Under the pieces are notes generated by a model. It was not told where the DNA came from, did not search any database, and saw nothing but the letters and a program-made list of their open reading frames with translations. The position numbers and the translations under genes are program-made. Positions 865-48,232 of a DNA stretch of 64,000 nucleotides are shown here, piece after piece. Positions within the stretch are counted from its first letter, which is position 1. Every line of letters starts with the position of its first letter. The stretch is from Naegleria gruberi (Eukaryota), in assembly GCA_000004985.1 (NCBI GenBank), contig GG738916.1. One strand, 5' to 3'.

Positions 865-914
865 NNNNNNNNNNNNNNNNNNNNNNNNNNNNNNNNNNNN
901 NNNNNNNNNNNNNN
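865..914. other. Assembly gap (run of 50 N)
   Basis: Fifty consecutive N characters. This is a scaffold gap, not biological sequence. Confidence 0.99.
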
Positions 915-3610: not shown

Positions 3611-6600
3611 TTATTCATAAACCTCAGCAAATTCAGTAGCACTTCTTCCAAATATTTCAGGAGTGTACATTTCCTCTGCCTTTACACTAGGAATCACAAA
3701 TGAACCAATGGATGTTGCTCTGGCAATATATGTGAATTGATGAGTGCCTTCCCATAATAGTGAAGTAAATGCTTCGACTCTTTCATCTCTAATGTTGTGA
3801 TGTTCGTACCAGATTGGATTAATCCACCAACACCAAGAATTTGGTTTGTTGGTTTTACTTCCATTGAGAGAGGAAATCTCTGGAGTTCCTTTCAATTCTG
3901 GATTGATTGGTTCGAGACCAGCTGGTAAATAGTCAACTAAGGCAACATGATATCTACGACTGGTATTTGTCATGGTCAACTTGACACGAATCAATTCTCC
4001 AGCTTTAAATCTCCAAGTATTCTTTTCCTTATCAAATGAAACATGAGAAGAATCAGTAACATGTTCATAGGTTCTTTGAACTTCAAATCCATAATCCAAT
4101 GCATCAACAAGTAAATTCTTTGGTGCATATTCCATTCCAATTCTGTAATATAATCTTCCAGGACCTTGCTTTGAGATGGCAAGAGTCTTTTTTTCATATT
4201 CCAACAAACTCATTGGAATATTTAATTGATTTTCATCCTTGGATCTTCCCTTGAACACTTGTTCTCCACAATAATCTTCACCCAACCACATGTTGGCCAC
4301 AAAATCTGGTGTCACACCTTCGAAAACATTAAAATAGGTATTGAGAGCAAGAAGAATGAAAACGTTTTCTTGAGTATTTCCCCAACGACCCTTCTTTTTG
4401 TGAGCTAGCAATCCCTTAACAATCTTTGGAATGAGATAATTGTTAGGAGTAATATTAATAAGAGCTTCTAAACAAATTCCGTCAGTTCTTCTGTCACTAT
4501 GTAACATGACATGTTTAGTTGACAGTACATCACCATAACTTGTAATAAAGTTGGCAGTTTGTGCAGTTTCATTAACATGCTTATTCAAATGTTCAATGAT
4601 TTGATTGGCTGAGGCGGTAGCTCTATTATTATTAGATAAATACATGGCAGTGGCCAACCAAGCTAAATGTTCAAAGTTTCCATTCAATTTGTAGGTTTGG
4701 TAATGTTTTTCAGCTAAATTCTTGACCTGAGAATCACCCAACAAAGCCAAAGCATAATATGCATAAGCCTTGGTAGATTTAATAGATTCCTCAGAATAAT
4801 CAAGTTCAATACAATAATTTTCAATACTTCTCAATACTGGAATTAATTTTGAGAGGGTTCCTTCATTCACTGAATATCCTGCAATCTTGGCACGTCCAAG
4901 CATGTGGCCAACATGGCAGGTCACATATGGACTGATACGATAATTATTATTATAGGACCAGTATCCAAATCCACCATTTGGAAATTGTCTTGCTTCTAAG
5001 GCAGTAAGAGCATGTTTGATATTATTATCGATTGCTTCCTTACTAGGAATTTGTTGTGAATTGAATGCAAGAAGAATGTCTTTCAAAGAAATAATGGAAA
5101 GTAATCTGCTGGAAATTTGTTCACTGCATTCGTATGGATAATTGTACAAGTATAAGAAACTGTCAGTGAGTGAAGAAAGTGCAGTAGAGCTAGTAGAAAT
5201 CTTTAAGCCTCCAAATTGAGTGAAAACATTTGGAGGAGCCTTAACAGGTTGGAAAACAGAAGAATCTCCATCCATTTCACCATAAGTGGCAAATGCTTCA
5301 GTAGTGGCAGGTGTAAATACTCTAATTTCCTTTTCAATGGCATCAGAAAAGTTAATTCCGATTGTGGCAATCGACACACCAATTTGGAATCGTGCAATAC
5401 CAACTCTATCGGTTGACATTGGGAATCTCAATTCAGTTCTTCCTAAAGCTGGAATCCTAATCTTGAGGCCCTTCTTTGACTCATCCAACAAGTTCAAATT
5501 GGTAAAATTGATAGCTGCATTTACCTCCAAATTCAATTGAGTTTGATTTTGTAAAACACATGTAAATTCTACTCTATCACCAAAGTTCAAGAATCGAGGA
5601 AGAGATGGCCTAATTGACAATGGAAGTTGAGCTATCATGGAAGATTCATGAATTCCAAAATTCCAATCACCCTTAACAGCAACTGCTGTGATTCTATATT
5701 TTGTAAGATTGTCAGGTATCTTGAATTTTACACTTGTGAATCCTTCTGCATTTGTCTTACTAGATGGACTAAAGATTGCCAATGGATTGAAATTTGATCT
5801 CACTGCAATCATTGGTTGTTCAGGTACTGGCATACCAGCAAATGCTGCACTACCAAACGCAAAGCCACCATACGATTGGACTGAAGGAGAAAATGGATCA
5901 GATGCTGGCATTTGTTGCATTTGCATTTGCATCGGATAACTATGATGATTATGAGAAAATGAAAAACCTGAGTTAGTAAGAGAAGTTCCAAACAGGGAAT
6001 TGGTGGTGGTATAAGTTTGCTCCTCTTGGAATATTATTCCCTGATAGCTCTTTACAAATACATTATTTCTGAGAGAGTAAGGTTGATAAGTAGTGTTGTA
6101 TGGTGTAACAAAGGTATCTAGTGGATTACTGATGGAGTAGTTGGTGAGAGAGAGTACAGCTTCGTCCACAGCAATGATACACACTTCACATCCTTCTTGT
6201 GGAGCTCCAGTCATTGGATCCTTAACTAGTACACTGATACTGGTTTCACTTCCAGGTGTCAAATATTCTCTTTCAGGTTTAGATTCCACAGATAAGCTTC
6301 TTGAATTTTTTGAAACCTCAATATCACAAGAACCTGATGAAAAAGCAGGTTGCTTTGGTAAATCTAAAACAGTGCCCGTGGCATCTACTCTTGATTCAGA
6401 ACCTGAGAGTTCAACACTTACTTTAACATTTGGAATGTGATCTAGAGTAATTCCAAGCTCAAATTCTGTATAACCAAGATCAGCATCAATTTGAATTGGA
6501 TATTGACGATGAATTCCATGAAGTTGTGTAAACAGTACGCCTTCAGCTTTGGAATCAAATGGAGATTGAATCAGAATCTTGGCCTTTTCTCCAACTTGAT

Positions 6601-9521
6601 ATTCTTTCTTATCTGTAAGAAGAGTGAGTTGTTTCTTCCCTATCAAAACTTCTCTTGCAGAAAATCCAGTGATAAATAAACTTGTTGATGCTTTGTTTGT
6701 TTGTCCTGTAGCAGAATCAACAATACCAATAGAAAATGAATAGTTGCCACCTTTTTCAAATTTGACAGAATATTCAATTGGTTCATTTTCCGATATGAAA
6801 ACCTTATCAATAACTTCAACAGTTTCAGAAGCATATTTGTATCCTTTCTTGACATTCACTTGAGTAGTGACTTTCAATTGGATTGGTATTCCTGAAACCA
6901 AATTTCCGTCAATATCTGTAACAATCAAAGAGGCAGTTATAGGAACATTTTGTTTTGCAAATTCTCGACTCAACTTGATTCCACAATAATATTTGCAAGG
7001 GTGAACGAGGAAGGATGCTGATGATGTCATTGTTTGTCTATTGATATCTTGAACTGTAGATTCTACAGAAATGGTGATTGGAGCCTTCTTTACACGATTA
7101 CTCTCCTCAAATGCAATTGCAATTTGGTGTTCTCCATCACCATCTGTTGTACCTTCAAAGGTTGTAACACCAACATTTGAGTTGGCCGAGAAAAGTTGCT
7201 TTACAAAGTCGTTTCCAAAGAAATTGAGAGACGTTCCAAAAGTGTATGAGGATTGATTTGGAGGAGTGTAGCTGCTGGTAGTTTGTTTGATAGTGTATCT
7301 GCATTTGGCTCCTGAAATTCCACCTCCACTATAGTAATCTGCATTGGTTGTGCAGATGGCAGATCCACCAACAATGTAATTTCCAGGTGATACTGAAGAT
7401 TTTGATTTGAACTCTGGAGTTCTAAATTCTTGAACCTTGAATGCGTGATTTGATGAAAAATCAGAGAACATAATTGTGTGACTTCCCAAGTTGGCATTAT
7501 CTGGAACTTTGAATTGAATATTAAATGTACCATCAGAGCTTAATTGTACTTTGCCTGATTCGTATCGTTGTTGTCTGGCATCTAAAATTGTGTAAGTGGA
7601 AGAATTTGTTGGAATATCAATGCTAAAAACATTTCCTTTCAAATTAAATCTTCTTACGTAACCCTTAATAGAGACAGTCTCACCTGGCTTGTACAATCCT
7701 CTATCATTGAAAATATGGGCAGTTATTTGAGGAGTAAACGCATTTCTGGCATAATATACATCTGGAATGAAACATGTGTCATGTCCATGAGTTGCTATGG
7801 CATTCAAAGAGCAGGAACCATAACTATTTCCAGAAATATTTTTAATACAACCAATTCCAGTTTTTGCATCTGGTGAACTTGTTGTATGATTATTAAAGTG
7901 GAAGGTCACATTGTCCTTAATAATACTGCCATCAATTAAGGAATTTACCCAATAGTAGGCAATTGAAGAGTTATTATCAATAACGCAATCAACTGCAATC
8001 TTCGTTGTTTGAATCCATGAAACATAACCAGGTCGAGTGTTCCATGAAGCTTTCCAGCTATTCATTTCAGCTTCAACAACCACCAACAATTGGCCAATGC
8101 TCTCAGATGGATACTGAAGATATTCTTGAAGATTAATTTCAGTTTCGACTGGTTCGTCAACTTCTCCCTTTGTTGATATGATTCCATCATAAACTAGAGT
8201 GCCAGGATATTTAATGGTAGCGTCTGTTTGGAATCTGAGTACTGAATGATTGAACATCGTGGATGGATTGACCTGGTAAACCCTGCAACGTACAGCATCC
8301 AAATTTACAGTTACAATAGGATAAGATGGACTTGGATTCAATGTTGGATCCATAACAATAACACCGGTTTTGAATGCTTGGATTGATTGGCGTGCACCTT
8401 TAACTTGAAATTCTACAGTAAGGTCTTTAAGCACTTGCCCCCAAACATCGACAAGATTCTTTACGAAAACCTTGTATGTTGTTCTTCCTTTGATTTTACC
8501 TGAGATGCTAATACTATTTCCAAATGGATTTAATGACATCCGTTCAATTGGTGGTGAAACAGTGAACATATTTTCTGTCAATTTTTCCAAATCAATGCCA
8601 GTTGTGAATTGCAAACTAAAAGCTTGCATTGGGAGCTCTCCTCCATACTTTTTGATAAACTCGAACGCAGGATAATTATTTACAGTGGTGATATGAGAAT
8701 GTAGTGTTGGCAATGGTCCTTCTGTTCCTGTAACTCCGCTCATGATACTCACCTTTACAGAGTTTCCAAAAAGATAATTACTAACATGGAACCACAAATG
8801 TCGTTTCTCTGGAGCATTTTTGAGTTTTCGTTTGTAAGCTTCATAAGTATGATAATCCCTCTTCTCCAAGTCGAAATCTTTGAGTGCTTTGAGGATGAAC
8901 TCCTGTACGAGAGGATTTGAACTCTTGCCGTCATGAATTAAGGTGGCTAAATTACTATTCTCATTAATTGAAATGAATTTGATAACTTCACTTGGATCAA
9001 TGTCTTGATCGAATTCTAAATAGTAAATTGGAACTTCATTCAGAGGATGAATAGTGTGATCAGAAGGAAGGGAGCTGATTAAAGATAATCTTGGAGTTTC
9101 AAAACTAAATGTCAAATCTTCTTTCAAAATTCCTCCAATTTCTGATTTGGTTCCCTTCTTAACAGTGACTGTATACTTGGTGGACATGTCAAATCTGTAT
9201 TTGGCTGCGTAAACTAGAGTTTTTGTGCCCAACCATTTGAATTGACCTCCTTTTTTTGGAAGAGGAGAAACATCCACTGGAACTGTATCCATTACTTCAT
9301 CAATACTGCTGACAGGAACCATCGGTTGAGAGAAGGTAATAGTGATCGATGGCACTGAACGATCCAACACACCTTCAGGCGAATAACGAATCACACTCAA
9401 CTCTGATCCTAAAATCTTTTCCTCCTCTTCAATCAATTCTTTTGGTTTCTCCAAATTCATTTCCGGTGGAAAGGGTACATTATTGATCTCTGCAGTAATT
9501 GGTGCTTTCAACGATTTTTCT
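3611..9521 (-). CDS. Alpha-2-macroglobulin family thioester-containing protein of bacterial type. Intronless, about 1970 aa, with no ATG of its own.
   Basis: Thioester-region motif YNYPYECSEQ is CxEQ type, not the metazoan GCGEQ. The N-terminal Ig-like module has ITFSQPMVPV. The A2M_comp-like segment has ARQFPNGGFGYWS. The C-terminal module DERVEAF...YIARATSIGSFVIPSVKAEEMYTPEIFGRSATE resembles the last domain of bacterial A2Ms. The track's M at 9511 is actually TTG (plus strand 9509-9511 = caa). The frame is open upstream only to a TGA at about 9536. There is no ATG and no signal peptide. Confidence 0.6.
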
Positions 9522-9552
9522 CTTTGATTAATTCATAATATAAGATATTAAA

Positions 9553-11301
9553 TTATTTAAATTGTAAATTATTATTGTAAAAGAAAACAAACCTCATGAA
9601 GAAATCCTTGCAATCATCCACTTCAGATGCAATATTCGGAAGTCTATTCAATAATTGGCTAGTTTCATTTGCTGACAAACTTTCAATATTTGATGACACA
9701 TCACCACCACCTGATGATGATCCAATATTTACTTTTTCCATCATCATGATCAATGATCGGGTTGTGTCCTCTGCAGTAGGTTCTCTAACAGTCAACTTTA
9801 AGCCATTATTTATGTTGTTCATCATGGAAGAAGCACCACCAAACAAATTAACACCACCGAAAGGAGGAGTTGTTGGAGATAGTTGTGATGGATAGCCACC
9901 ACCAAATAAAACAGAATTTACAGAGGGTAGTTGTGAAAACATTTTTTTGGTATTTTGTTTTGTGAGATGGTGAACCTTTTGAAGGTAATGGTGAACTTGA
10001 AAGTGTACGAAATAGAAGATTAACAGAACATTTTTAATATCCTCTAACAATTGTTTCAATTCCTCACTGCCATCAAATGGTTCGTCTCTGTAGCCAAGTT
10101 GCAGGTCAAAGTTGCCCATTTTCATCAAGCCATGAAACCAACTGTTTGTGAAAAAGTACAATCTTGGAATAGAATATAAAATATTGAGATAGGTTTGGTG
10201 TCGTGTGAATGTAGTTTCGTCTGGAATGGTAACATTTATACCATTCTTTTCCCAAATTGGGACGATAATTTCTATTACTTTGGATCTGACTTGTTTATCA
10301 TCAAATGATGTTTCCATATCTGAAACGGGCATGTCCTTGTTCAGCATTTCTAAAAGACAGGCCCAATGAGCTAGAGTTTCACACTCCTTTACAACTGAAG
10401 TGAATCTGCTTTGTGGCCAATCAAGAACGGCAGATACCTTTGCTGTATCTAAGGATGCATTGCTTTTGATCATTATATTCGATGCATTCAAATCACAATG
10501 ACAAAATTGATAGACATTAGGATCTTCCACTCCATCATCTGTATGCAACAGTTTGGATTTCAAATCAAGAAGAGGTTCTGAATGAAGAGAAACAAAATCA
10601 AGATAATGAGGATAATGAACTTGTTCTCCAGTATTCGAAATTTGATTCAGAGTGAAATCTATTTGCTCAATGACCATTTCTTTCAAATTCTTGAAAGGTC
10701 CCAATGGAGCACAATCACCAACAATTACTCCAAGAGAACTCTTTTCACTTCCCAACAAGGATCCAACTTGATAATCATCCTTCTTATTCTCGGAATTTGT
10801 GTGTAATTTTCCAACAATAACGATCAACTCCTCAAGAAGCTGAACTTTCTGTTTGATTGAGAGAAATCTCCAAGAGTTTGCCAAAGTTTGTCCTTTTGCC
10901 CTCTCTTGCAAAATATATTCGCAACCAAGAGGGGACTCTTCAGCATTATCTGAATAGGAAACAATTTTAGGTGTTGGTATTCCAGCTTTCTCAGCAAATA
11001 GAATGCATTTGACTTCATTCCGAACAGAAATTCCTTTCCAGAAAGTGTGACAATTGGAAATTCGCAAAACCAGTTCAACACCTTCGAGAGTTCCCTCTCT
11101 AACAGCTCGGATCATGAATATTGAATTGATGACTCCTCCAGATTCTTCAAACTTATAAAATTCTTTGAAAATCAAATGGTGTTGTTGTAAGAGAAGAGGA
11201 AGAGTATGTGTGAAATTCTCCAACAAATTATTCATTATTTGATGGTATTTAGTTTCTTGTTCAGAGAAGGTGGGATGGTGGAGAGTAATGCGAGATGACA
11301 T
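9553..11301 (-). CDS. Protein with an APH/choline-kinase-like phosphotransferase domain and a low-complexity FG/Ser-rich tail. Possibly the 5' exon of the downstream A2M ORF.
   Basis: True ATG at 11299-11301. Kinase-like catalytic loop HCDLNASNIMI (HxDxxxxN) and VLDWPQS (D-x-W/F metal-binding-like motif). C-terminal 150 aa low complexity (LFGGGYPSQLSPTTPPFGGVNLFGGA...). A GTTTGT donor 10 codons before its stop is in frame with the A2M ORF (see findings). Confidence 0.5.
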   Translation of the reverse strand: MSSRITLHHPTFSEQETKYHQIMNNLLENFTHTLPLLLQQHHLIFKEFYKFEESGGVINSIFMIRAVREGTLEGVELVLRISNCHTFWKGISVRNEVKCILFAEKAGIPTPKIVSYSDNAEESPLGCEYILQERAKGQTLANSWRFLSIKQKVQLLEELIVIVGKLHTNSENKKDDYQVGSLLGSEKSSLGVIVGDCAPLGPFKNLKEMVIEQIDFTLNQISNTGEQVHYPHYLDFVSLHSEPLLDLKSKLLHTDDGVEDPNVYQFCHCDLNASNIMIKSNASLDTAKVSAVLDWPQSRFTSVVKECETLAHWACLLEMLNKDMPVSDMETSFDDKQVRSKVIEIIVPIWEKNGINVTIPDETTFTRHQTYLNILYSIPRLYFFTNSWFHGLMKMGNFDLQLGYRDEPFDGSEELKQLLEDIKNVLLIFYFVHFQVHHYLQKVHHLTKQNTKKMFSQLPSVNSVLFGGGYPSQLSPTTPPFGGVNLFGGASSMMNNINNGLKLTVREPTAEDTTRSLIMMMEKVNIGSSSGGGDVSSNIESLSANETSQLLNRLPNIASEVDDCKDFFMRFVFFYNNNLQFK

Positions 11302-11411: not shown

Positions 11412-14400
11412 CTAATATACATCGAGATCATCATCATCACTAAATTCACTACTGTCATATCCAGCAAGCCTGTTTGTTGAAAACACTGGTTCGAAACCAA
11501 TTAGAGAATCCTCCAAGACAATAACCAAATGAACAGTAAATTGATAATAGGTATTGCCATTTTCTTTGGTGATGATTTTAGGTTTGTAAATACCTTGTTC
11601 GAATATGTTAGATTTGCCTCTTATAGCGATATTTTCATAACCAAATATCAAAAAGTTAAGATCGTGAGTTTCGTATAGTGGTTTGTTAATTTTGGAAATA
11701 GCAATTGATTCCTCATCCAAAGTTTCATTAGCAATGAGGTAACTCAATTTTAAATGTGGAGATGAGCTCAAATACGTTCCAAAGTCAATGTAAAAATATC
11801 CTTCAACATTTGGTCGTATGTATAGAATGTGCTTAGATCCAAATATATCCATTTCTTGGCTGGCAAATGCATGGTCTGATAGATCAGTGGTAGTAATAAC
11901 TCTAACGTTTTTGTACTGAACTAGCCTATTCTTGTGAATTTTTCTTGCAAGCCAAGCAGATTTTGTTATCAACGCTTTCACTTCAGGTTCTTGAATAGTT
12001 TTATCCCCCAATAAAGAGGTAATTTCTTCCACTGTGTAATACTTGCTCTCAACTATTTTCATACAAAGAATGAATGGCTCTTCTGGGAAGGAGACATGGT
12101 TATTGTAAGAATAGTCAGACTGTGGTATGAATTTGTTGGTAAACACATGGAAATTGGTCATTCCACTTGGGAAAATAATACAACAGTGGGCTATGGTATG
12201 ACCAAATAATATTCCAGATTCTAATTTTGGCTTAGAAAGTATTAGTTTGAAGGTAACTGATTCATCAATTGAAAGTAGCCATTCATGCCCTTCAATGGTG
12301 AATTTTTTAGTCTTGAACTCGTTAGGTGAAATGTTAATCCTAGTATATTCACTTTCTGCAAAATGAGGAGAAAATAATCTCACCAATTCATCAATAGATA
12401 ATTCCATTTGTTCAGATGAGGAAGAAGGAATAGCTACTCTTTGAACATAATTATCTACGTAATCATTTTCAATAGCCGGCTGGTGTTGTACTATATTATT
12501 TTGGATTTCATCCAACTTATCCAGGTCGTTAGCATTAGGAAATGAAGGAGTTTTGATCAAGTATGTTTGGACAACTAGTTGGAAGAATGATTCGAGCAAT
12601 CTTACATACTCAACGGATATTCCAGAACGGCAGAAAAGATCCATCACACGTTCGATAATTGATAAACTATAGTAATCCAATAGTCTTAATTTTCCCTCCA
12701 CAAATAACTTCATCACTTCTTGGCAAACAGGATTGAGTCTAATAAGACCAACAAATGGCAGATATTTCAAAACTTGTTCATAACGGTTATGATTCAACAA
12801 TATTATTGCCACATCTGAAAATCTGCTGAAAAATCGATGAAGATTTTTAGAAAGACAGTCCAAAATTTCCTCTCTATGCCCATCCATAAACTCATCTGAA
12901 ATTTGGTGAATAATTCTATCTATAAGATATCTTTGAGTATTTCTTTGAGTACTTCTGTCGTTTTGGTTTTCAGTATAGGTGTTAATAATGTGTTTGTAAA
13001 AGAACCATGTAGTTTTACAATCAGCACCACTCAAATAGCCTCTAGATATAAATTCAACAAGTGTGAAATACAACTCTGTCAGTTTCCCGGAAGATGTTAA
13101 TAATTCAATTTGAGATTTCATCTTTGTTATGATAGTTTCTGGTGTACCATCTAAATTTCCTAAATTATTCTTGACAAATAAATGTAAACGTTCAACTGGA
13201 GGTTGCTCAAACTCAGAATAGATAGATGAAAATACAAATCTCTTTTCATATTCGAGCAATGTAATTTCACCACAATCTCTAATTTTTGGACAGTCATCAA
13301 TAAGAACAGTTGTTAAATTGACCATCTTTCTTTCTAGGGGACCAATAATAGAATTTGTTAAATGCTCTGAATATCTGATGATAAGTGAGCTTATTGGAGG
13401 ATTGTCATCCATATTCTCAATCATTTCTATTAAATCTTCATCCCTAAGATTGTGTATAACTAAATTCAAAGTCTTTAGAAATGGAAGTCTAGCTATTTGT
13501 TTTAAAATATTAGAGGATGAATGAAGATTTTCTATTTTCAAATGTTGCAAAGAATTTGGGAGCTCTATTATCACATCCTCATCATGGTTATTCAATGTCA
13601 TTTTTCTCAAGTTGGAAAATTCTCTCAAATCCAAAGCTTCTACTATATTATTTGACGTTTCCAATTCTTCTACAGTGTGCTTATTGGGACACATATCGAT
13701 TAATTTTTCATCAAATGAATATCCCTTTAGAACTTTCAATTTCACTGTGTTTGATTCTTTGAAAAATTTAAATACGTCTAAAAGGTAACTAGAAGGTAAA
13801 TCTATAACCATTTTTTCAAGTAGTGGACAGTTCTTTAGGCATAATAATGGGCTCGACACTATATCGTCATAAATATATTCATCACATAGGGATATCTCCT
13901 TGAGAGAAGGACTGCATAGAAAGACAATTAAACTCATAATTGCCTTGCTCGATAAACAATTCTTAATTTTCAAAGTGTGTAATTTTGAAAACATTACAGG
14001 GGGAAAAGTCTTTTTAGATTCATAGTTGGTATCTTCGTCGAAAGTGAAATCAATACTCTTCAAGTTGGTCAATCCACTGAGTGCACTGTGCAGCAGATCA
14101 ATATTCTTGTCTCTAGAAAAATTAATAGTCAAGTTTTCTAAATATTTTAAACTTTGCAAAGGCTTCAAGTTGAACCTGCTTGCAGTAAATTGGAGAGTAT
14201 TAACATTTGTTAAAAATTGAGTAGATTCTTGGAGAGGGAAAGTTTGAGCATCTACACCTCTCATTATAATACTATTTAAATCCAAATGCTTTAACAGTTT
14301 TGAAATACTACTCCACGATATTATTTCTGGTAACACAATTTCTTTCAAATTCTTACATTGGCTCAATGGTTCTAATATTTGGTTATTGGCCGTGAATCCA

Positions 14401-14972
14401 AACATGAAATACTCCAATGAAGGTGGAAACTGTATACCAGCAATGCCAACAAAACCTTCATCAACACCCTTCACAAAGGATAATCGTTTCAACTTTTTAA
14501 AAGGGGTAAAGTCTAGATGGATAGGTTTTGCCCAAAATTGTGGCAAAACCAACTCGGTCACTGTGTTGGCCAAATCACCACCTTCTGCCAACTCTTCAAC
14601 AAATGATGGCTTTACCTTGATCAATTTATGACAATCCAAATATTCAATATTATTTAAATAACTCAAGCCTTTGATCAAACCATCACCTTCCAAGTCGTAG
14701 AACCTTTGGTTGGCCTCCTCTAAATTTTGTAGAGTGATGGACCGAAGTTTGGGAAGTTTACTCAGGTAGGTTTGTGCAATCCGAATGAATTGCTGATCAA
14801 ACATTCGGAAATGTATTAAATATGAAGTTTTTGTGCATTTCCAATAATCCCAAATAAAGTGATCAAATTCGGAACACACCAACCTAAGATGAATCAAGGA
14901 ATTGTGAGGAATAAATGCTAGAATACTGTGAGTGAGTACTTCCGGGGGTAAAAGATGAAGTAATCCACTCAT
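11412..14972 (-). CDS. F-box / leucine-rich-repeat protein (1186 aa)
   Basis: N-terminal F-box LLPPEVLTHSILAFIPHNSLIHLRLVCSEFDHFIW. Followed by many LxxLxLxxN/C-type LRRs, for example LKSIDFTFDED and LKEISLCDEY. Acidic C-terminus. Single long ORF. Confidence 0.5.
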   Translation of the reverse strand: MSGLLHLLPPEVLTHSILAFIPHNSLIHLRLVCSEFDHFIWDYWKCTKTSYLIHFRMFDQQFIRIAQTYLSKLPKLRSITLQNLEEANQRFYDLEGDGLIKGLSYLNNIEYLDCHKLIKVKPSFVEELAEGGDLANTVTELVLPQFWAKPIHLDFTPFKKLKRLSFVKGVDEGFVGIAGIQFPPSLEYFMFGFTANNQILEPLSQCKNLKEIVLPEIISWSSISKLLKHLDLNSIIMRGVDAQTFPLQESTQFLTNVNTLQFTASRFNLKPLQSLKYLENLTINFSRDKNIDLLHSALSGLTNLKSIDFTFDEDTNYESKKTFPPVMFSKLHTLKIKNCLSSKAIMSLIVFLCSPSLKEISLCDEYIYDDIVSSPLLCLKNCPLLEKMVIDLPSSYLLDVFKFFKESNTVKLKVLKGYSFDEKLIDMCPNKHTVEELETSNNIVEALDLREFSNLRKMTLNNHDEDVIIELPNSLQHLKIENLHSSSNILKQIARLPFLKTLNLVIHNLRDEDLIEMIENMDDNPPISSLIIRYSEHLTNSIIGPLERKMVNLTTVLIDDCPKIRDCGEITLLEYEKRFVFSSIYSEFEQPPVERLHLFVKNNLGNLDGTPETIITKMKSQIELLTSSGKLTELYFTLVEFISRGYLSGADCKTTWFFYKHIINTYTENQNDRSTQRNTQRYLIDRIIHQISDEFMDGHREEILDCLSKNLHRFFSRFSDVAIILLNHNRYEQVLKYLPFVGLIRLNPVCQEVMKLFVEGKLRLLDYYSLSIIERVMDLFCRSGISVEYVRLLESFFQLVVQTYLIKTPSFPNANDLDKLDEIQNNIVQHQPAIENDYVDNYVQRVAIPSSSSEQMELSIDELVRLFSPHFAESEYTRINISPNEFKTKKFTIEGHEWLLSIDESVTFKLILSKPKLESGILFGHTIAHCCIIFPSGMTNFHVFTNKFIPQSDYSYNNHVSFPEEPFILCMKIVESKYYTVEEITSLLGDKTIQEPEVKALITKSAWLARKIHKNRLVQYKNVRVITTTDLSDHAFASQEMDIFGSKHILYIRPNVEGYFYIDFGTYLSSSPHLKLSYLIANETLDEESIAISKINKPLYETHDLNFLIFGYENIAIRGKSNIFEQGIYKPKIITKENGNTYYQFTVHLVIVLEDSLIGFEPVFSTNRLAGYDSSEFSDDDDLDVY

Positions 14973-43540: not shown

Positions 43541-46500
43541 TTATTGAGTCTGCTTAAACATGGCCAGTTGTTTGTAAACTTTGAGCTTTGTTTGCTCATT
43601 TTCAATTAAACCAACAATCCAAGAAGAAACAGGAATGCTAAAAGCTCTCAAAATTCTTCTAGTCAACAATGCGATATTCAACACTGTAAATCTCTTAATG
43701 AGTCTTCTTGTTGGAGAAACAATTAACAACATTTCAAAGCAATAACCAATAGCCAAATGTGACAATGAATAAATTACTATCCTCAACTTGTAATAGAGTG
43801 GAAAATTAATCAAGCTTATTGCCTGTTTCAATAAATCAGTAGGTATGAAAAGTAAATAAGCTGTTGCCAAATAAATAATGATAATGAAAAGTGTAAAGGT
43901 AACTAATTGGAAATATTAACATCAAACTATTCTTATAATAAACTTACAATTGTTTGTAATGATTGGCAACTTGAATGGTTTTGAAATACTCATACAAATA
44001 GAAATATTGATAATACAGAATGTACACACAAAGAACATTATTGTCGTCTCATAGGAACGCAATAAATCATTCTTATAGTACATAAAGTTTGTGTTAATGG
44101 TTGGAGAGAACCATGGCTCACGCATAATTTCAGTCCAAACATGGAAAATGAAAGCAGAAGCAAGGAGAACGTGACCACCAAGGGAAAGGAAAATAAATCT
44201 GGAAATGAGGGTTGTTGGTGGTTTTTCTCTTTTCAGAGCTAAACTTGCATCAGTTCTCGTCATTAACAAGGTTGTTGGCATGACTACAATTAAATCAATA
44301 AATAAAAATTGAAAATCCACAAAATTACAATTTCTAGAGAGTAAGACAACAATTGTCATGATTTGAACAATAGAATAGAGGGCAATGAATTTGAAAATTT
44401 GGAAAAAGGTAAGTAAGCTTGCTCTACCTTCACGAATAACTGTAACCATTGAACCGACAGTTGGTTTCAAACTAGTGAATGGTGCTGCGACTGATATTTC
44501 TTCTGAAAGGGAAATACCAACATGGGCCGATCTGAGAGCACCCAAATCGTTGGCACCATCTCCAATCATACCTACGTCATATCCCATTTTTTGAAGTTCT
44601 GTCACTAGGGTTTTCTTATGATTAGGCGAAAATCTGGCATAAATATTGCATGATGTAAGAATGATATGAAGTAGAGAAGGTCTCTTAGTGTTAATGTATG
44701 GCTCTCTTCTGGTTTTCTTTACGAATAATCGATGTTCATTGTGTACATATTCAAACACCTCCCCAACAACTACAATGTCAATATTACGCAACTTGAGCAG
44801 CTCTTCTGTAGTAATTACTTGTCCACTCTCTGTTTGTCTCCACATGATATTCTGAATATAATCCACATTGGAGACTATTTCTCTCTTCAATTCACTCAAG
44901 TAACAATCCTTCTTTTTTTCAATAACTTTTGACTTTCTGGCAACATTTATGGAAGTGTATGCATTGTCACCACTACAAATGATGCACTTGATATTACAGT
45001 CCAATAATGTTTTGATGGATTTTGAAGTTCCTTTCTTTACCTTGTTTTCTACCAAGAGTAGACCAATAAATTCCATTTCTGATTCTACATATTCTCTTGG
45101 AAGGGTTTCCAACTCGGATAAAGTGAGATTGCTTGGTAATGTTTTACTGGCCAGTGCCATAACTCGATAGCCCTTCTGAGCATAACATTTCAACATGTCA
45201 GAGTAATTTGGAGGAATTGAGGATGGTTTAGAAATGGACTTGACAGATTCAGCACTACCTTTAGCAAATGCGTGTAAATTTCCAGTTGCATTATTCTTAA
45301 TTACTACAGACATTCTCTGAACTGAGCTCTTGAAATCAAAAACATTCAATTTAGAATAGGATTTCTCAACCTTCTGATCTGTTGACTCAAAGAATATTGT
45401 ATGACCATAAGCTGACTCGGAAATATCTTGCATGGACCACTTGCTAGTCTGGAATAATTTAGAATCCAAAGGATCACCAATAAAAGTTGTACCAACTCTA
45501 CTAAGATTGTTACAACATGCCAAACATTGAACCAATGTGCTATTAGAAGCAAATAATTTCGAAATGTTAGTTCCCTTGACATATGGATGAAAGAGACCTT
45601 CAACGGATGGGAAAATTCCATGAACATCTATTTCATTCTCGGTTATTGTGTTGGTCTTGTCAAAAACTGCAATTTTGACATATCCAGGAAGGTTAACTCG
45701 TAATGGTGAAGTACACAAAATCTTCCTCTTTCCCAATCTTCTCATAGTAAATGTTATTGTTGTTGTCATGGCCAATGGCAGGGTAGGAGGCACACTAATA
45801 GTGATAATATCTAGAATGTGTAAAAAGACATTTCCAGCTGGTGCTCCCAATTTGAATAGATTTGCAGCTGTTCCAATAATTCCAATAAATCCAGTCACTA
45901 CTAATACAATTAAGAATTTGAGAGAATCTCTATAAACATTAAACTCTGCAGTCTTTGGGAATAGAATTGATAAGAGTAATTTTCCTTTCAGAGTATTGAA
46001 TCCTGTTTGACTCACAATACCAAAGCATTTGTTTGCGAATAGACTGTTAGGAGAAGGTTTGGCTGTCAAAACTTGCGTTCCAGAAAATATTGTGTGATTA
46101 TTCTCTCTAGAAGGGTAATATAACTTGGCGTCATCATAGGGCAGTGGCCTCTTCTTGACTGGAATACTGTCACCTGTTAATTTTGATTCATTAACAATAA
46201 CTTGACCACCCAACAAAATAACATCACAAGGCAATGTCATACCATCAGTAATTTCAATAATATCTCCAGGGAATAAATCGAGAGAGTCCATTTCTTCCTC
46301 CTCTTCATTTCTCTTACTAGCATTCTCTTCTGAATAGATTGTTCTATTATATTTAGATGGTGCTCTCAGTGCAAGTCTATTTACAAAGCAATGATTCGAA
46401 GTCAAGTCCTTCAATTTTTTCAAATTATCATATGTTCTCCAAAAACTGAATGATATAACTATCAGAGTAACTATTGCTATTGAAATGCAATAAGTGTAAT

Positions 46501-47875
46501 ATTGTTCCAAAAACCAAAGCACAAGGATGAATACTTGGAAAAGGTAGAATGGATGTAAAATTTCATCTAATAGAATTTGTACTCCTGATTTCATTGGAAT
46601 TTCCGTAGAATTTTTACCAAATAGTAACTCTCTCAATTCTCTTTCATTTTCTGCTTCCTTTTCAGCCATTTTGTGAATTTTAGAAAATGGAATACATGTG
46701 TTAAATCTAACCCTGTGAAAACTATCCGTCACAGGATCATATATAAATACTAGAAATCTATATACAAAATATCGCACCATGATAGGTTCAAACGAAACTC
46801 TCAAATCCGAATCAAAATTCCTCACAAATCCTTTCTTAATTTTTACAATCGTCCACTGGTTTGTCTCCTTCGCCTTGATTAATACCTTTGAAGCATCAGC
46901 AAAGGAGTGACCATTGTTACTACTATACGAATAGGTCATGTATGATTTGAGCCATTTTAGCCACCGACAGCAAACCAACAATGAACCAGCACTCGCAACT
47001 ACACACAACCAAAACAATACTTCCAAGTAGAATTGATGCCTCAGTCCTTTTATCGAGGCAATTTCATGAACATACTTGCTTTGATTATCCAAATATTCTT
47101 CCTCTGGAGCATGTGAAAAATCCGAATCATCGTCAGGATCTTCAAAATGGAGTGAGAGGGAAGTTCTATGGAAGTGTGTATTTGGTTGAGTGGAAAATGA
47201 GAGTGGTGAGGAAGGATTTTGTTCGTCGTCATCAGAATGTGCAACAATTGGCTCATCCACATGTAACTGTTGTTGATGAGAAGCAGCTGCTCCTGGTGGC
47301 ACTGTAGCTTGTTGATGATGTGGTTTTTGCCTACTAGTAAGTGTGGAACTTCCCGATGATGTATACTCATTCAAAATTGCTTGCAAACTTGTTGATTGTT
47401 GCTTCTTGATGTGATGATGATGACTAAACTTATTCAATGAATAACTACTATTACTCGGACTAATTGGTGTTGGAGGATTTAAAGTGGGTGGAGAGTAGGA
47501 AACATTATAGTCTTCAATGAGAACCTCCTCCATATTACTACTACTATTATCATTGTCCACATGTTGGCGATGATTTGAATTATTAGTGAAGGAAGATAGT
47601 GAGTGAGGAATGATAACACTCACACTCTCCAAATCATCCAGACTACCACTACTACTACCCATATTCATATTCATATTATTATTTTGTTCTTCATCATTAT
47701 GAAACCTTTCATCTTCATCTATTGTTGATAATGTCGATTCATTCATCATTGCACTCTCGGAATCTACTCTAAATAAATTATTGTTGTTATTATTATTATC
47801 TTTGTTGTCGTTGTTATTATCAATGGCCAATTGATGAAGAGAATCATCCGAGCCTACAACATTACTATTCTTCAT
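43541..47875 (-). CDS. P5-type (P5B-like) P-type ATPase: complement(join(43541..43902,43948..47875))
   Basis: Actuator motif LTGDSIPV. M4 motif VPPTLPLAMT (PPxxP). Phosphorylation-site block FDKTNTITENE (DKTGT variant). Hinge MIGDGANDLGALRSAHVGISL. About 290-aa Asn/Ser/Gln-rich N-terminal extension. A 45-nt GTAAGT..TTAG intron in phase 1 joins the main ORF to the downstream 109-aa ORF, which encodes the last TM helices. Confidence 0.65.
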
Positions 47876-48232
47876 ATCTCTAAAAAGTAAAAATTAATGT
47901 ATTTGAAAGCCAACACCACAAGCAAGAAAAAAAGAATCACCAGCAAGCAAATGACTTGTGCGTTTTTTTGTTGTTTTTTCTTGTTCTTTGTTGTTTTCGA
48001 TTTTTTTACTTTTTTAACGTTAAAATTTGTACAAATTAGATAAGTGATAAACTTTACTGTAATGATCAAAGTGTCGAAATGGATGTTCTTTGCATTTCAT
48101 TGTTTTGGAGAGGTGCTTTGGTGCTGAGAGGGAAAATGGGTGGATTGAACTTTGGAGAAAGAGGGAATGATTTTCACATCGAGTGTGAAATTTGATTTTG
48201 TTTGAATGAGGATTTAAGGATTTGCAAAATAT

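Follow-up and report, generated by a model that had tools for sequence, protein, structure and literature searches.

A candidate kinase-macroglobulin fusion locus in Naegleria gruberi is probably two adjacent genes, with the first exon of an alpha-2-macroglobulin hidden in the upstream gene model

Alpha-2-macroglobulins (A2Ms) of Heterolobosea include proteins of Naegleria lovaniensis (C9374_010557, 2081 amino acids [aa]), Naegleria fowleri (FDP41_011249, 2098 aa), and Naegleria gruberi (XP_002670008.1, 2010 aa). Homologs of about 2000-2150 aa occur in Acidobacteriota (Pyrinomonadaceae and others), and a COG2373 protein of Dictyostelium has been reported to carry an inserted cpRAS domain (PMC2430557). 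Here we describe a locus on the minus strand of a 64-kb stretch of the genome of N. gruberi strain NEG-M (the window), where a large open reading frame (ORF) encoding an A2M lies directly downstream of an ORF with an APH-type phosphotransferase-like domain. This A2M is a member of the bacterial-type family with bMG10, to which COG-based pipelines assign the label YfaS/COG2373. An earlier sequence-only reading of the window, which took its source to be amoebozoan rather than heterolobosean, had proposed that both ORFs are spliced into a single kinase-A2M protein. The results presented here indicate that the locus probably calls for a correction of gene models and is not a kinase-macroglobulin fusion.

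The large ORF extends from stop to stop over positions 9532..3611 (minus strand) and, from the ATG at 9460 on, is 100% identical to XP_002670374.1 (1949 aa), which was deposited as a 'ras GTPase domain-containing protein'. The upstream ORF (11301..9553, minus strand; 582 aa) is 100% identical to XP_002670375.1 (NAEGRDRAFT_74619, 560 aa) and consists of three pieces, namely, an APH-type part (residues 1 to ~428), a spacer (residues ~426/429 to 453), and the first exon of the A2M gene (residues 454-570). This arrangement probably represents two neighboring same-strand genes, an APH-type gene and a two-exon A2M gene, not one fused gene. The first would encode a stand-alone APH-type phosphotransferase-like protein of ~425-430 aa, reaching from ATG 11301 to about 10020-10035. 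The second would encode a bacterial-type (COG2373/YfaS-like) A2M of 2086 aa from exons 9942..9593 and 9521..3611, with its own promoter and translation from ATG 9942. The two frames would merge only because the spacer of 26-28 codons is stop-free and the frames coincide.

The two A2M exons are separated by a spliceosomal intron of 71 nucleotides (nt), GTTTGT...AAAG, at 9522..9592. Upstream, the sequence reads ...TGC AAG GAT TTC TTC ATG AG|GTTTGTTTTC, with the last exon base at 9593 and the GT at 9592-9591. The acceptor reads ...TTAATCAAAG|A GAA AAA TCG TTG AAA, with the AG at 9523-9522 and exon 2 starting at 9521 (...TCAAAG|A at 9522|9521). The intron interrupts an AGA Arg codon between the second and third bases, and splicing yields ...CKDFFMR|EKSLKAPITAEINN in frame; unspliced, the upstream ORF ends ...CKDFFMR FVFFYNNNLQFK*. 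The G+C content of the intron is 12.7%, versus ~35% in its flanks. Its retention would disrupt the frame, as 71 is not divisible by 3 and an in-frame TAA (9555..9553) lies within it. The extended donor AGGTTTGTTT is present in only three copies on both strands of the 64 kb, each at the break of a homology-supported ORF. The other two are donors of a phenylalanine hydroxylase intron (~31621, minus strand) and of the last cathepsin B intron (35487, plus strand); the remaining four cathepsin B donors are GTAAGT. The sequence-only reading had recognized this intron, its in-phase splice, and the donor type common to the phenylalanine hydroxylase and cathepsin B genes. It also placed the donor correctly at 9592, but counted ten codons from there to the upstream stop where there are twelve.

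The splice junction is contiguous in nine heterolobosean A2M homologs, which read ...ETxxLLxRLPxI....KDFFMREKSLKxP... and include the paralog XP_002670008.1, proteins of N. fowleri, N. lovaniensis, and Willaertia magna, and one metagenomic eukaryote. The alignment with an intronless Acidobacteriota homolog is gapless at the junction (DFSMR-DRSLPPP, E 7e-11), and other bacterial homologs have the same N-terminal blocks in the same order (GLKFRLSEG, LSxxETxxLLKRIPPIK, and DFAKRxGSLPAPKTG). Furthermore, an intron is found in the same Arg codon and in the same phase in an N. lovaniensis gene (locus L003, encoding P0005; GTAAGT...CAG, 95 nt) and in an N. fowleri gene (locus L004, encoding P0004; GTAGGT...CAG, 272 nt). 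By these comparisons, we consider the 71-nt intron and its junction to be real, because the junction is contiguous in heterolobosean and intronless bacterial homologs and the position and phase of the intron are conserved in two other species. No intron is present at the junction in the gene for N. fowleri P0007 or in either W. magna gene, and the intron thus marks one Naegleria subfamily of A2M genes. As the nearest relatives of the family are intronless bacterial proteins and the intron is limited to one subset of Naegleria genes, its distribution suggests intron gain.

The upstream-ORF residues 454-570 (117 codons), which had been described as an FG/Ser-rich tail of the kinase-like protein, align with A2M N-termini, including the LxVREPxxxD block, and are A2M exon 1. 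This alignment extends to the N-termini of the nine heterolobosean homologs and of bacterial homologs, and in a tblastn search exon 1 matched N. fowleri exon 1 from residue 26 onward. Exon 1 occupies 9593..9942 (350 nt, 116 codons and two bases) and runs from ATG 9942 (MFSQLPSV...) to ...CKDFFM-AG. That ATG, at residue 454, is the only one between the APH-homologous and the A2M-homologous stretches, and it is preceded by AAAAAA; the encoded N-terminus begins MFSQLPSVNSVLFGGGYPSQLS. The context AAAAAATG has 26 copies in the window, ~20 of them at the first ATG of an ORF. It was found at ~10-13 of the 27 long-ORF starts, versus 3 of 343 internal in-frame ATGs, with 9942 among the 3. Translation from ATG 9942 yields 2086 aa, compared with 2041-2118 aa for the homologs of other species. 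Those homologs begin 15-60 residues ahead of the VREP block, as does the A2M translated from 9942. N. fowleri exon 1 opens similarly, with MF...P... in an A-rich context. A visual look upstream of the start codons revealed no shared promoter motif beyond the A-run. Overall, the A2M most likely has its own start codon, ATG 9942. In N. fowleri locus L004 (8074..8400), the exon 1 frame is likewise open for ~107 codons upstream of the likely start (MFLPNNPT...), without similarity to APH; thus, open frames upstream of the true start recur at these loci.

The homology-supported part of the APH-type gene covers 10018..11301. Pfam detected APH (PF01636) in the upstream ORF at 48.3 bits (cut-off, 23.2; E 1.4e-12), and the motifs HCDLNASN (catalytic HxDxxxxN, residues 268-275) and LDW (residues 293-295) are present. 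In an exhaustive, profile-free search of 1.84 billion representatives, 285 relatives were obtained. Among the best 150 of these 285, none was longer than 945 aa, and the closest was W. magna KAL9644068.1 (461 aa). Residues 19-458 of this protein align with residues 7-425 of the ORF, covering the APH part end to end without a frameshift, and the W. magna protein ends three residues further on. The public model starts at Met23 (MNNLL). The true start is ATG 11301, 22 codons upstream of the XP_002670375.1 model, because homology to Willaertia begins at residue 7 (LHHPTFSEQE versus FHHPTFTEQE) and ATG 11301 lies in an AAAAA context. A metagenome scan with the upstream ORF as the query yielded no relatives.

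The in-frame, stop-free spacer between the two parts (9943..10017; residues ~426/429 to 453, LLIFYFVHFQVHHYLQKVHHLTKQNTKK) is covered by no homolog of either family. It includes the peptide VLLIFYFVHFQVHHYLQK and ends ...IFYFVHFQVHHYLQKVHHLTKQNTKK. Its codon usage was scored as log-odds of coding versus non-coding sequence, both conditioned on the lack of stops, after training on the other long ORFs of the window. The 28-codon spacer scored -4.08, which falls in the lowest 0.7% of 439 coding windows of equal length (mean +2.11, standard deviation 2.57) and is a usual value for non-coding windows that are free of stops (mean -1.17, standard deviation 3.37). A frame-versus-frame codon score along the ORF is low at the spacer and also within the APH domain, and is therefore not decisive. 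The open spacer is unremarkable, because 21.6% of non-coding 28-codon windows lack stops; the feature that calls for an explanation is the absent APH stop. We infer that it comprises the 3' untranslated region (UTR) of the APH gene, intergenic DNA, and the 5' UTR of the A2M gene.

A candidate for the former end of the APH gene lies exactly at the end of APH homology. The hexamer ATTAAA at 10038..10033, the sole match to A[AT]TAAA within the upstream ORF, contains a TAA (10036..10034, within GGATATTAAAAA) that is one base out of frame (-1 frame), and it is followed by a stretch with 47.5% T. Direct RNA sequencing of N. gruberi has shown that AAUAAA/AUUAAA-type signals lie ~15-20 nt before the cleavage site, that the median 3' UTR is 39 nt, and that 11-13% of stop codons lie inside the hexamer (PMC11529991). 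In the window, 7 of the 27 long ORFs end AA-TAA-A (e.g., stops at 1198, 20277, 25974, 30330, 32220, 42462, and 54387). The distance from TAA 10036..10034 to ATG 9942 is 91 nt, and other tandem gene pairs in the window are 93-193 nt apart. When one T is added (GAT TAT TAA), the APH protein ends ...QLLEDY*, compared with ...ELLKEY... in the W. magna ortholog. The hexamer with its TAA is likely a remnant of the APH stop codon and poly(A) signal. The gene would formerly have ended at this TAA and lost the stop through a 1-nt deletion, either a genuine one in strain NEG-M or one introduced by erroneous base calling in the assembly. As a separate observation, AA-TAA-A ends and AAAAAATG starts are handy local signals of gene boundaries in the N. 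gruberi genome. An additional small intron near the 3' end of the APH gene, leading to a stop codon, was also considered and rejected, as no GTAAGT/GTTTGT-type donor exists within 10142-9680.

Several points weigh against a two-gene interpretation. Separate mRNAs are deduced from the genome. The spacer codon-usage test covers 28 codons only and has moderate power. Of the N. gruberi hexamers, AUUAAA is the weaker, and it is also found in coding sequence (PMC11529991), and five further ATTAAA copies lie within the A2M coding region. The one-base deletion or error is a reconstruction that was not observed, and the APH frame contains no in-frame stop before the intron; hence, a read-through transcript, once spliced, would encode a fusion. 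The start-context argument is also weakened by the other two internal AAAAAATG sites, which are located at 13811 (minus strand), deep in a 1186-aa ORF without a Pfam match (11412..14972), and at 44587 (minus strand), in a P-type ATPase ORF (43922..47893). These two sites may reflect chance, internal starts, or merged models.

The strongest alternative is a single gene and mRNA starting at ATG 11301 and spliced at 9593/9521, which would encode a protein with an N-terminal APH-type kinase-like domain and a complete A2M. In such a case, a one-base change would have removed the APH stop, and read-through, spliced transcripts would yield a kinase-like/A2M chimera. After removal of the intron, the frame is indeed uninterrupted from 11301 to 3611 over 2539 codons; the in-frame splice proposed by the sequence-only reading thus stands, with a product of 2539 aa instead of ~2550 aa. 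The APH domain looks intact, with HCDLNASN, LDW, and a full-length alignment free of frameshifts. Additionally, an N-terminal cytosolic domain is topologically not absurd, given that no signal peptide is obvious in the heterolobosean A2Ms. However, the spacer has non-coding codon usage, ATG 9942 lies in a gene-start context, and APH homology ends at a poly(A)-type hexamer whose TAA is out of frame. The fused architecture is also absent from the best 150 APH relatives, and no other A2M locus examined adjoins an APH gene.

Synteny was compared at five A2M genes of N. fowleri, N. lovaniensis, and W. magna, none of which has an APH gene within 6-10 kb, and the W. magna APH gene is on a contig other than those of its two A2M genes. 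The fused architecture and the APH-A2M adjacency therefore appear to be unique to the N. gruberi locus among the loci and relatives examined, and the APH-A2M domain fusion, a search for which in other genomes had been suggested, was found neither among those 150 relatives nor at the five A2M loci. A collection of 15 billion proteins contains neither the two-exon product of 2086 aa nor the fusion of 2539 aa, and neither is backed by an annotation or a transcript ORF. When metagenomes were scanned with the degenerate pattern AARGAYTTYTTYATGAGGT, at least 120 matching stretches were returned, and by tblastn none of those listed was an A2M or APH locus. A literature search on the accession numbers found nothing. 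Overall, a kinase-A2M fusion protein is not supported; we consider it unlikely, and at best it would be a very recent, lineage-specific read-through. If it were true, it would be a gene fusion caught at birth, in which a cytosolic phosphotransferase fold has been joined to a bacterial-derived, signal-peptide-less macroglobulin.

Two genes could also be maintained with the sequence as it stands if polyadenylation made the APH stop codon. Cleavage 10-25 nt past ATTAAA, behind an in-frame U or UA (e.g., after T 10023 or TA 10014-10013), would give UAA once the poly(A) tail is added; otherwise, the transcript would be non-stop and the gene would be decaying. In Blastocystis, the poly(A) tail completes a UAA stop in nuclear genes. 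For Naegleria, no stop codons generated by polyadenylation are known to us from the literature. The locus does offer a T-rich stretch after ATTAAA and in-frame TTA and TAT codons at the right distance, and the ultrashort 3' UTRs of N. gruberi, with the hexamer ~15-20 nt before cleavage, are compatible with such a mechanism (PMC11529991). However, the explanation is purely inferential and needs cleavage at one exact base, and we regard it as improbable.

Even less probable is that the public models are correct, with an unspliced protein (560/582 aa) ending at TAA 9555..9553 and a 1949-aa A2M starting at ATG 9460. Both have been deposited (XP_002670375.1 and XP_002670374.1), but they split an uninterrupted block that has been conserved between bacteria and Naegleria. 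They also leave 20 conserved codons ahead of ATG 9460 untranslated, give 117 A2M-homologous codons to the kinase-like protein, and disregard an intron conserved in two other species. The presence of this in-frame ATG also corrects the earlier statement that the A2M ORF has no ATG, although the 20 conserved codons lie upstream of it. The idea of a start-less pseudogene or relic, prompted by exon 2 alone having no ATG ahead of the conserved region, is the least credible of all, as 2086 codons are open with positive coding scores, each Pfam domain exceeds its cut-off, the CSEQ motif has been retained, identity to an intact paralog amounts to 74%, and exon 1 provides a plausible start codon.

In the two-gene interpretation, the body of the A2M is encoded by exon 2 (3611..9521; 5911 nt, including the TAA stop at 3613..3611), and the stop is directly followed by AATAAA, giving the gene end TAATAAA. 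Pfam confirmed the A2M assignment of the large ORF as well as the APH-type domain upstream of it, both of which had been recognized from the sequence earlier. The matches in the A2M were bMG10 (113 bits), A2M_BRD (72 bits), A2M (56 bits), and MG2 (55 bits), all above their cut-offs, and Big_5. A thioester-type CSEQ motif (YPYECSEQ) is located at residue 1582 of 2086 (first codon starting at 5128), where a thioester may form. Pfam detected no Ras domain in the A2M. The name 'ras GTPase domain-containing' of XP_002670374.1 is a misnomer, probably derived from similarity to the cpRAS-containing COG2373 protein of Dictyostelium.

Between A2M_BRD and A2M, where a bait-like region is expected, residues ~1290-1400 (~5600..6010, minus strand) are rich in Gln, Met, Phe, and Gly (SYPMQMQMQQMP...GGFAFGSAAFAGMP). 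In the paralog of N. gruberi, as in several homologs of N. fowleri and N. lovaniensis, the same segment is strikingly Cys-rich (e.g., CCRFARACSSCANCCFEDCMNECCCCDDLCCQCACC), and it is hypervariable among paralogs. The N-termini of the Naegleria and Willaertia A2Ms, judged by eye, are hydrophilic or FG-rich and have no obvious signal peptide. Of the two features that the sequence-only reading had suggested looking for in orthologous A2M ORFs, an ATG of their own has a counterpart in the similar start of N. fowleri exon 1, and a signal peptide is not obvious. The difference between these N-termini and the signal-like bacterial ones raises the question of where heterolobosean A2Ms act in the amoeba. 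Elsewhere in the window, a run of 50 N at 865..914 represents an assembly gap.

The practical consequence of these results is that two deposited N. gruberi protein models, which have been copied into UniProt and EukProt, are wrong. XP_002670374.1 is without the first 137 residues of a conserved A2M. XP_002670375.1 is without 22 N-terminal residues and carries ~150 residues of the neighboring gene or its intron. As for the stop-less ORF that continues in frame into its neighbor, it represents either a mistake in the assembly that deserves correction or a read-through fusion of very young age.

Compared with the other heterolobosean A2Ms, the N. gruberi A2M has the same set of Pfam domains, the same LxVREPxxxD, ETxxLLxRLPxI, and KDFFMREKSLKxP blocks, and, once exon 1 is added, the same length class (2086 aa). 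It also shares the codon and phase of its intron with N. lovaniensis C9374_010557 and the N. fowleri L004 gene. In contrast to them, it immediately follows an APH gene in the same frame, and its A2M_BRD-A2M region is Gln/Met/Phe/Gly-rich, whereas that of most paralogs is Cys-rich. The Acidobacteriota A2Ms are 35-37% identical over the full length and collinear at the N-terminus across the junction. They have no intron and, judged by eye, a hydrophobic, signal-peptide-like start, unlike the Naegleria and Willaertia proteins.

The APH part aligns end to end, at 30-33% identity, with W. magna KAL9644068.1 and with a transcript ORF of Gefionella okellyi (401 aa), and it shares with them HHPTF(S/T)EQE, HxDLNxSN, LDW, and a C-terminal SWFH block. 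Unlike these relatives, the N. gruberi sequence has no in-frame stop where they end. The locus resembles the mis-merged or read-through ('conjoined') genes of compact eukaryotic genomes, in that the frames of two same-strand genes, here ~90 nt apart, are joined by a stop-free spacer and appear as one ORF to a gene predictor or a human reader. It differs from the usual mis-merges in that exon 1 of the downstream gene is hidden in the upstream model, so that both models are wrong.

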